A DNA stretch of 64,000 bases, taken from the NCBI RefSeq assembly GCF_037042905.1, contig NC_087251.1:13456001-13520000 (forward strand), given 5' to 3'. Below, piece by piece: positions 19,140 to 21,286 of the stretch; positions within the stretch are counted from its first letter, which is position 1, and each line of letters starts with the position of its first letter. Under the pieces are notes generated by a model. The model was given only the letters and a program-made list of their open reading frames with translations. It had not been told where the DNA came from and did not search any database. The translations under genes were made by a program, and so were the position numbers. The DNA comes from Lytechinus pictus (lineage: Eukaryota).

Positions 19140-21286
19140 AACTTTGTCAACCCAAGCAAGAAGATTTGCATTATCGATTTGGAAAACTTGTAATTATTCA
19201 AATCCTTTTATTATGTGAAACAAATTATGTTATGATACATGAATCCATTTTTCAAGGGGTTATTGATTCCTTGACCAAGTTTGATTATATGCTTGACAGG
19301 ACGAACAGGAAGGGATTCATATCTTTCAATAGCAATGGTGTATTGAGTCAATTTTGAAGGAGCTAGATATGGCAGATCGGGTAAATGTATTAAAAAGTTG
19401 TGAGCGAGCAAAGCGAGCACGCAAATATTCCCACTTTTTTATTAAAATATCAAATTTTGTGATAGATTTTGACGTAATATTCAGAAAATGATATCATATT
19501 TTACTTTCTATATTTTCTTTTATTTCTTTTATTTCCTTTACACCTTTTTTTCTTGGTCATGATTTTTTTTTTAATTTGGGGGGGGGGGGGGGGGGGAGCA
19601 TTTCCGAGCTCCCGCCCATCTGTATGGCACTGTTCAAAGGCACCATAACCTTTGAAGCACACAATGAAAGGATTTGAAAAAAAGATACACGCTCTCCCAT
19701 ACTTCAGTTGAAAAAAAAATTGTTTTTGCTTGAAGAAGGAATATTCACAGAGCTAAAGAGAACATATTAAAAAGAAACAACAGAACAATTCAAGCAAATA
19801 AATAGATTTGAAAATGAATTTTGACCGCATAATTTGAAAATTATGGCAAAGATATTGAAAAGGTAAAGAGGAAGTCTGCTGATTAGCAAGAAGTCCGATC
19901 ATCATATTTATCATTTTATGCCATTTTGGCGCAAGCCTCCTTTTTAACCCCAGACAAAAACACTCCGTGTTCGCTCAAGCATGAACGAAACTAAATTTTT
20001 TTAATGGCTTTTGAAATATAAGACTTCAGAGCACCTATTAACACCAAAATATAACATCATAATATGAAACAAAAATTTTAGAGACTTTTCAAATCTGTCC
20101 CGTTTTTGTCTCGCCTGCATAGCAAAGCGAGACTATAGGCGCCGCTTTTCCGACGGCGGCGGCGTCAACATCAAATCTTAACCTAAGGTTAAGTTTTTGA
20201 AATGACATCATAACTTAGAAAGTATATGGACCTAGTTTGGACATAAGGTTGATCAAGTATTACTGAACATCCTGCCTGAGTTTCAGGTCACATGACCAAG
20301 GTCAAAGGTCATTTAGGGTCAATGAACTTAGACCATGTTGGGAAAATTATTTTCAAAATCTTAACCGAAGGTTAAGTTTTTGAAATGACATCATAACTTA
20401 GAAAGTATATGGACCTAGTTCATGAAACTTGGGCATAAGGTTAATCAAGTATTAGTGAACATCCTGGTCGAGTTTCAGGTCACGTGACCAAGGTCAAAGG
20501 TCATTTAGGGTCAATGAACTTTGGTCAAGTTGGGGGTATTTGTTGAATTACTATCATAACTTTGAAAATTTATGGATCTAGTCCATGAAACTTGGACATA
20601 AGGTTAATCAAGTATTAGTGAACATCCTGCCTGAGTTTCAGGTCACATGATCAAGGTCAAAGGTCATTTAGGGTCAATGAACTTTGGCCGTGTTGGGGGT
20701 ATATGTTAAATTACCATCCTAGCTCTGAAAGTTTATGGATCTAGTTCATAAAACTTGGACATAAGAGTAATCAAGTATCACAGAACATCCTGTACGAGTT
20801 TCAGGTCACATGACCATGGTCAAAGGTCATTAAAGGTCAATGAACTTTGGCCGTGTTGGGGGTATTTGTTGAATTACCATCCTAACTGTGAAAGTTTATG
20901 GATCTAGTTCATAAAACTTGGGATATAAGAGTAATCAAGCATCACTGAACATCCCCTGTGAGTTTCAGGTCACAAAACCAAGTCAAAGGTCAGTTAAGGT
21001 CAATAAACTTAGGCCATGTTGGGGTAATTGTTGAAGTGCCATCATAACTTTGAAAGTTTATGGATAGAGTGAATGCAATGTGGACATGGGTGTAGTTGAC
21101 AGTCTTAAGTCTCCGTTCAAATGTCATTTATGGTCAATGAACGTGGTATTATGTCATTATATGAATGATGTTTTTGTGAATGATTATTTTGTAGTAGTTT
21201 TCAAAGTTAGCACTGCTGCTATATTAAATTGCGTAATGCAGGCGAGACTGCCAGAGGCGTTCCACTTGTTTTTTATACGCACTGTA
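19140..21286 (-). mobile_element. Partial inverted copy of the Tc1-like element at 59783-61932, with a HINE in its terminal T-run
   Basis: 19143-20105 matches the reverse complement of ~59795-60737; the terminus TTTATACGCACTG|TA resumes after the HINE. Confidence 0.8.
20103..21270 (+). mobile_element. HINE copy 2 (GTCTCGC/GCGAGAC variant)
   Basis: Same architecture as copy 1, with about 6 central units. Confidence 0.8.

Follow-up and report, generated by a model that had tools for sequence, protein, structure and literature searches.

A half-site cassette as a candidate third conserved box in the central repeats of a sea urchin HINE

In this study, we analyzed a 64,000-nucleotide stretch of the genome of the sea urchin Lytechinus pictus (assembly GCF_037042905.1, contig NC_087251.1, positions 13,456,001 to 13,520,000 of the forward strand), which we call the window and in whose coordinates all positions are given. 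The window holds nine copies of a HINE, a non-autonomous Helentron, in and around the gene for a nuclear receptor with two DNA-binding domains (2DBD). The central repeat units of this HINE carry a dense cassette of nuclear-receptor half-sites. Judged from its letters, the cassette is the third conserved box (box C) of the unit, next to two short boxes, A and B. The element with the cassette studied here is laid out as follows.

20103–21274, + strand: complete HINE with the cassette, placed within a TA-flanked inverted-repeat element, at a T run of that element's right arm; read ends accumulate at 20102–20103 and 21270
20108–20133, + strand: 5′ subterminal inverted repeat (subTIR, 12 bp) with a nested inverted repeat, forming a hairpin (−9.0 to −9.6 kcal/mol) that co-varies with the 3′ copy
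20151–20165, + strand: CGG/CGA microsatellite, past the left end, from the sequence
20207–21065, + strand: central tandem array of 192- and 163-bp-type units, from unit alignment
20285–20328, + strand: box C, the half-site cassette, in the first unit of the central array, with four direct RGGTCA half-sites at spacings of 8, 1 and 4 nt plus an inverted TGAACT
20299–20311, + strand: perfect direct repeat with a 1-nt spacer (DR1), the sole arrangement common to other families by motif comparison
20393–20432, + strand: boxes A and B of unit 2, as the module ATAACT-N26-AAACTTGG; the DR1 of this unit lies at 20491–20503
21237–21258, + strand: 3′ subTIR (21237–21248) and a weak palindrome with a 3-bp stem, from folding and sequence

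The letters at 20285–20328 agree with those of an earlier sequence-only reading, which counted six RGKTCA-like half-sites in 44 bp. Five of these are exact, at 20285, 20299, 20306 and 20316 and, on the other strand, as TGAACT at 20323; the remaining one, TGACCA at 20293, is one mismatch off. The DR1, the direct repeat with a 4-nt spacer (DR4), the inverted repeat with a 1-nt spacer (IR1), CCAAGGTCA and AAAGGTCA are all found in the cassette, as that reading had listed them. The IR2-like and everted pairs are also present, but both depend on the imperfect TGACCA. An AGTTCA site placed elsewhere in the unit is missing from the unit that holds this cassette, which lacks 9 bp at 20236. The cassette contains RGGTCA-N-RGGTCA (DR1), the sequence criterion of a nuclear-receptor response element. 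A typical unit has six exact half-sites, which was matched by 1 in 20,000 dinucleotide shuffles, and the 14-mer AAGGTCAAAGGTCA (at most one mismatch) occurs 29 times in the window, on the + strand only, against 0.03 expected. Half-site density is 18.6/kb within HINE elements and 2.2/kb outside them. The dozens of units reported along the window were recovered at the listed positions as 32 units aligned over at least 110 bp; since these descend from one ancestor, they count as a single event and not as 32.

Within the HINE family, the cassette ranks 2/117 among 44-bp windows of the unit for lowest variability, and by this window ranking it is the best-conserved 44-bp part of the unit. Per base, the half-sites differ from the majority by 0.06–0.07 and the rest of the unit by 0.11–0.12 (Mann–Whitney p ~0.02), a value that was stable for all 32 units, for the 27 left without terminal units and for the 24 left after also removing three twins. 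The half-sites are not more conserved than the spacers between them, whose eight bases differ by 0.04–0.05. Private mutations fall in half-sites as often as elsewhere (24/1028, 0.0233, versus 72/2982, 0.0241; Fisher p = 1.0, 29 units), and purifying selection on half-sites in place, beyond that on spacers, was not seen in this comparison. Because of this equal rate, inserted copies probably decay neutrally, and any constraint would act on the lineages that spread.

The same box plan recurs in families whose spacers cannot be aligned with this HINE. Two of them lie in the window.

45520–46670, + strand: second family, in a receptor intron, 158-bp units with the same boxes and spacings and unalignable spacers
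41780–43600, + strand: third, decayed family, in pieces at 41.78–41.93 and 43.42–43.60 kb, in which the same module recurs and the DR1 is degenerate

The 158-bp family keeps ATAACT, the 26-nt gap, AAACTTGG and the DR1, with spacer identities to the 163-bp unit of 9/26 and 11/44. Its flanking half-sites stand at spacings of 7 and 5 nt, not 8 and 4, and inverted half-sites are absent. To look beyond the window, we scanned for two DR1 boxes 152–182 bp apart, which returned 121 metagenome loci in 5 of the 64 parts of the collection; 14 animal-like contigs, chosen by eye among 33 genome matches, brought the total to 135 loci. After removal of 22 short-period arrays, the remaining 113 loci formed 54 clusters. 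The DR1 core, the one deeply conserved part of the cassette, recurs in 53 of these, and a third half-site follows the box directly (DR0) in 23, while DR7 occurs near it in 22. DR4, IR1 and IR2, which the sequence-only reading had listed too, are found in 0/54 clusters; we rejected them as conserved elements, and they are particular to this HINE family. Several features that the search did not specify are also shared. The base at −1 is a purine in 107/108 animal-like boxes. The module ATAWCT-N-AAAYTT has N = 26 in 8/54 clusters, compared with 0–2 clusters at each other N from 16 to 37, and its distance to the DR1 is 60–61 nt in six of these eight and 62–67 nt in the window families. Across 11 families, spacer identity is near random (mean 0.36), with the boxes and the 26-nt spacing unchanged. 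Microsatellite left ends of the HINE type lie upstream in 8/41 clusters, versus 1/41 and 1/48 in controls, most of them past a hairpin (e.g., L021). From this HINE-type anatomy, we infer that the hosts of the clusters are animals. Thus, the unit plan of ATAWCT, 26 nt, AAAYTT, approximately 60–67 nt and DR1 is common to many families, with spacers diverging freely. Contigs with animal-type HINEs also occur in prokaryotic genome records (L006, L010, L011, L014, L021, L158, L164 and others), apparently through host contamination of the bins.

Boxes A and B are also found without the DR1. A search by the A–B module alone returned 74 loci, mostly bacterial chance matches or duplications. Among the ten animal-like families picked by eye from these, three show a single direct half-site or a pair of them where the box would stand. 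The oyster rows CL1, CL3, CL7 and CL8 have the 26-nt module or a degenerate form of it, counted by eye. Because many families with boxes A and B are without it, the DR1 box is accessory. In the window, the 26-spaced module occurs 28 times, against 0–3 occurrences at other spacings, and eight of the 28 sit in the arms of TTAA-ended inverted-repeat elements, 78–79 nt from the end in six intact arms.

12648, 29096/29480, 33607/33976, 58866 and 63040/63429, arms: TTAA-ended inverted-repeat elements (miniature inverted-repeat transposable elements) with ATAACT-N26-AAAYTT and without DR1, from the module scan

We take these TTAA-ended elements to be Kolobok/T2-like. Repeats that contain a perfect DR1-like 13-mer are also present at L012:1501–1682 and L031:1501–1678 and in L008 and L030; those of L012 and L031 adjoin genes of the TrfA initiator and resemble plasmid iterons.

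The earlier assignment of the element to HINEs holds, as its end structure and its insertion into T runs fit the published definition, which includes subTIRs, a nested inverted repeat, a microsatellite and a T-rich target (accessible text of PMC4067079 and PMC7492417). A full copy reads, in order, T run, 12-bp subTIR with nested inverted repeat, CGG microsatellite, 192-/163-bp units, complementary subTIR, weak palindrome and T run. The subTIR complement lies approximately 25 bp before the 3′ end, and both subTIRs change jointly in five full copies, so that subterminal inverted repeats of the prescribed 11–15 bp are present near the 5′ end and tens of bases from the 3′ end. The nested 5′ inverted repeat is followed by the microsatellite, as in the definition. 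The definition also asks for a short palindrome past the 3′ subTIR; here the candidate has a stem of just 3–4 bp (approximately −4 kcal/mol), and its pairings vary among copies. Comparison of the filled sites at 20.1 and 61.1 kb with the empty arm at 59776–59825 shows insertion into a T run without target duplication, and T runs stand at every HINE end in the window. The central tandem repeats are non-coding, interspersed and of high copy number, with thousands of reads that have varied flanks. On the contigs of a related species, depth is 1.8–2.6 million over the element and 50–100 over unique DNA, which speaks for great abundance and is not a copy number. The family makes up 7303 of the 64,000 window bases. 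Rfam gave no match for the element, scans of viral contigs gave a single unrelated match apiece, and no empty orthologous site for a HINE copy was found among the read rows listed. The other copies are as follows.

14528–15517, + strand: HINE copy, near-twin of the 61.1-kb copy with different flanks, nested in an inverted-repeat element
27144–27992, + strand: HINE copy in receptor intron 1
29620–29910, + strand: HINE fragment in receptor intron 1
51005–51897, + strand: HINE copy 2.3 kb past the receptor stop codon
52793–53816, + strand: HINE copy
56790–57063, + strand: 3′ half of a HINE
59747–62931, + strand: HINE interrupted by a TA-inserted inverted-repeat element (approximately 59781–61933), with a second HINE (61116–61925) in the right arm of the latter; the left arm is an empty site

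The interval 59747–63534 is a nested stack of a HINE, the TA-inserted inverted-repeat element, the second HINE in its right arm and a TTAA-type element. The arm position of the 61.1-kb HINE is filled at 20.1 kb as well, and the internal units of the copy there are different. The near-identical copies at 14528–15517 and 61116–61925 are 46 kb apart in unlike flanks, which suggests recent or local transposition.

The RNA that matches the HINE comes almost entirely from one strand. We used two stranded runs depleted of ribosomal RNA, under the same species label and from one study, of each of which approximately 6% was read. Exons of the + strand gene are read by first mates in the minus direction, and the same direction accounts for 99.2% and 97.7% of the depth over three HINE bins. 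This depth reaches up to 2,700-fold coverage, versus 0–17 on unique DNA, and at 20264–20927 and 26904–28231 the matching RNA is the element's own top strand (98–99%). At both HINE ends, reads continue into differing flanks (at the 5′ end in X21, 1,971 of them with an agreement of ~0.4), which means that many loci contribute and that transcription starts upstream of the element. Other repeats are near 1:1 by strand, but three of them are inverted-repeat elements, for which symmetry is partly built in; one further bin is at 1.4–1.9:1. In the window, all nine HINE copies and the two related families face the + direction, a one-way orientation with p = 0.004 for the nine if the copies are independent, which the near-twins make doubtful. 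On the simplest reading, transcribed copies are almost all sense, through strand-specific insertion or through purging of antisense copies. We found no strong 3′ splice site on either strand of the element and no imbalance of poly(A) signals between the strands (0 versus 0; AATAAA 3 versus 4), and the motif counts thus give no support to either as the cause of the bias. YTRAY matches number 161 on the reverse strand versus 51 on the forward strand. General co-orientation of arrays was not found on animal-like contigs of two other records (G001 and G002), where a hand count among the matches listed gave eight in the same and nine in the opposite direction; motif direction need not equal element direction. 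IS200/IS605 elements are said to transpose as single strands at replication forks. An absolute orientation bias is described for Paramecium Helitrons at telomeres in the accessible text of PMC13085455.

The gene next to the HINEs is a real 2DBD receptor gene, as had been proposed, with two C4 DNA-binding domains, whose P-boxes are EACKS and EGCKG, and a ligand-binding domain.

25627–48731, + strand: coding span, in public model P0002, of the echinoderm 2DBD-NRB gene, a nuclear receptor gene with the P-boxes CEACKS and CEGCKG

One window exon is identical to the Lytechinus pictus protein P0002, all of whose exons map to 25627–48731; four exons match the zf-C4 profile and one weakly matches the ligand-binding domain profile. 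RNA over receptor exons is from the + strand at a depth of 3–17, with the first signal at 24.9–26.2 kb. The first coding exon of P0002 (25627–25657) lies 9 kb upstream, whereas the relative P0003 starts at the methionine at 34769, and the upstream start may be species-specific or untranslated. A 110/220-bp tandem array at 42473–43194 lies in a receptor intron between the two pieces of the third family. According to the accessible text of PMC10497141, the P-boxes CEACKS and CEGCKG define echinoderm 2DBD-NRB, which is present in one copy per echinoderm; the window gene is the same and adds nothing new, and the accessible text mentions no DNA element for this receptor. The description of the units as scattered in and around the gene is correct in that two of the nine elements lie inside it (intron 1), two upstream and five downstream. 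The suggested tie between the cassette and the receptor finds no support here: the family is very abundant, seven of the nine copies are outside the gene model, and no AGGTCA repeats were bound by a 2DBD receptor from a flatworm (accessible text of PMC1810520). In that work, DBD1, DBD2 and DBD1+2 of a schistosome receptor showed no binding in electrophoretic mobility shift assays to direct, everted or palindromic AGGTCA repeats with 1–6 nt spacing; the receptor is from the other 2DBD group, and arrays of four sites, although predicted, were not among the probes. The 2DBD-NRB gene is most likely an accidental host.

A family of 176-bp repeats, inverted copies among them, with GCCATCTTG-type motifs also lies in the window, at 227–1818; we take these motifs to be YY1-like. 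Copies of a long interspersed nuclear element (LINE)-type retrotransposon lie at 7101–11496 (+) and approximately 3250–4960 (−), and the + copy has endonuclease and reverse-transcriptase domains broken by stop codons.

The closest relatives of the urchin element in the literature are the bivalve repeats Cg_HINE, Pearl, BIV160 and Cg170. They share its left end with subTIR, nested inverted repeat and microsatellite, its short array of 140–190-bp units and its 3′ subTIR (PMC7492417, PMC5139131) and, as HINEs, insert into T-rich targets without duplication (PMC7492417). BIV160 and Cg170, with a monomer of approximately 160 bp, share two conserved motifs (PMC5139131); the urchin unit length and 26-nt module match oyster rows by eye, and the two published motifs may be the same boxes. 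In contrast to the present account, the accessible texts on these repeats give no motif letters, receptor-site reading, fixed spacing or sharing among families called unrelated (PMC7492417, PMC5139131), and several module-bearing oyster repeats are classed there as unrelated (PMC7492417). Unlike the urchin HINE, oyster arrays almost never have a perfect DR1. DINE-1/HINE elements have the same defining ends and TT target, and DINE-1-like elements and Helentron proteins are reported in sea urchin; the accessible account has no conserved internal box, and the urchin 3′ palindrome is weak in comparison (PMC4067079). Caenorhabditis Helitrons are rolling-circle elements with dense, working sites for a host factor, here heat-shock elements, proposed to have served the element first; binding and gene induction were measured for them, whereas the urchin site is of receptor type, is common to many families and is known from sequence (accessible text of PMC6927752). 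The nearest model for a role of the box in DNA transactions, as opposed to transcription, is the binding of COUP-TFII and TR4 to RGGTCA direct repeats, in the form of GGGTCA telomeric variants, in cells with alternative lengthening of telomeres, where they promote recombination at telomeric repeats (PMC6785246). That system concerns the telomeres of cancer cells and has no transposon, and the likeness is an analogy (PMC6785246, accessible text).

Recruitment of a host receptor by the element is plausible from the motif comparison, because the DR1 core recurs in many unalignable families. We give an even chance to the explanation that the cassette is kept because it would aid the element's own spread through a host DR1-binding receptor, and not for host use. 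In this mechanism, each 150–190-bp unit would hold a nucleosome placed by boxes A and B, and the DR1 would be left in the linker, where an ordinary host receptor of the RXR, COUP-TF, HNF4 or TR2/4 class would bind. The telomere role of COUP-TFII and TR4 is reportedly called indirect in the title of another paper. Through the bound receptor, donor copies would remain accessible or be drawn to active chromatin, and either would favor mobilization by the Helentron transposase. AT-rich sites approximately 16 bp either side of the dyad favor nucleosome positioning, and boxes A and B are 32 bp apart, or three helical turns. If the dyad is assumed to lie between them, the DR1 starts ~78 bp away and the TTAA end of the inverted-repeat elements lies ~88 bp away. 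Both fall just outside the 147-bp core, and for this reason we favor a phased nucleosome with the DR1 in the linker. The AA/TT/TA signal has a periodicity peak at 10.5 bp (z 3.8), while the AA–TT and purine/pyrimidine signals, the other two of the three tested, have none. A wider version, in which unrelated DNA-transposon superfamilies would share a chromatin grammar, seems rather unlikely to us. Here the 26-nt module would phase a nucleosome and keep the working site, be it the end or the DR1, in the linker, HINEs would hitch on receptors and land strand-specifically in transcribed DNA, and the cassette could be the first natural 2DBD element; such landing, if true, would account for the nearly one-strand RNA.

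Several observations weigh against maintenance through a host receptor. The cross-family search required the DR1, and its frequency is not derivable from the clusters. A perfect DR1 is found in 0/10 of the animal-like families picked by eye from the 74 module loci, and the 3.35 million characters of the oyster HINE arrays contain two occurrences of GGTCAAAGG. Within the cassette, spacers and half-sites are equally conserved, variants common to at least three units fall in 7/36 half-site columns versus 38/116 of the rest (p = 0.15), the 10.5-bp peak is one among three signals and many periods, and the mechanism leaves the one-strand RNA unexplained. Nuclear receptors are absent from bacteria, yet the same 12-mer is found there in heptamer arrays and in repeats next to TrfA genes, and bacterial boxes also have a purine at −1 (35/38), so that this base was rejected as a receptor-specific sign. 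These bacterial repeats, of which L012 and L031 adjoin plasmid TrfA genes, are in line with another explanation, in which the box would serve a protein of the Helentron itself, or another non-receptor protein, as an iteron-like site and would resemble a DR1 through a doubled heptamer. Conservation of the full 44 bp, spacers included, and constraint at the level of propagation fit it as well. We consider it unlikely, since the transposase cannot generally need a box that is absent from many HINE families in which boxes A and B are present, and TrfA, an initiator of theta replication, is unrelated to Helentron proteins. The neutral rate of private mutations, the 22/135 loci that were plain short-period GGTCA arrays and the selection for the box by the search itself would agree with a box of no function, a slippage-prone heptamer from an old repeat carried along by homogenization within arrays; near-random spacers beside fixed boxes and a fixed 26-nt spacing in 11 families, with 60–61 nt to the DR1 in six of eight clusters, make this quite improbable.

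The one-strand RNA at many loci (98–99%), the excess of YTRAY on the reverse strand (161 versus 51) and the shared direction of the nine copies could also mean that the box acts in RNA or single-stranded DNA, one orientation being tolerated or useful and the other harmful, e.g., through cryptic branch points. We regard this as very improbable: there is neither a strong 3′ splice site nor a poly(A)-signal imbalance, the fixed spacing of three helical turns favors double-stranded DNA, and arrays in the two other records are not co-oriented. The sequence-only reading had proposed that the element spreads response elements for host use and that the neighboring 2DBD receptor reads or represses them. 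The extent of the family in the window (7303 bases) agrees with it, while the lack of purifying selection after insertion, the seven of nine copies outside the gene model, the abundance of the family and the weak expression of the gene in the two RNA runs do not. A similar box is presumably present in teleost repeats, and we know of no report of 2DBD receptors from teleosts. The four direct half-sites per unit equal the four predicted for a 2DBD homodimer (PMC1810520), and the second P-box is of the AGGTCA-reading type (PMC10497141), but the schistosome domains, from the other group and without a trial of four-site arrays, bound no two-site AGGTCA repeats in the accessible text of PMC1810520. 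This is the least probable of the explanations weighed here.

The class of the element and the receptor are already known, as is the fact that repeats of this kind contain conserved blocks. Our literature search, whose scope did not extend to subscription papers and repeat databases, returned no account of the DR1 identity of a box, of a 26-nt module shared with the arms of other transposons or of the strand bias. The main weight of the finding lies in the cross-family grammar and the strand bias, not in the neighboring gene. HINE central repeats seed much satellite-like DNA in mollusks and occur in echinoderms, and for work on the role of their conserved blocks the fixed three-box plan with a perfect DR1 offers precise, mutable targets. 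Such a near-complete bias of the RNA to one strand hints at a rule of insertion or purging that has not been described so far. The cassette is a ready four-site substrate for the question of 2DBD receptor binding. If host receptors bind the box, its tens of thousands of copies would amount to an extensive reservoir of receptor sites, through which transposon activity would be tied to receptor state.
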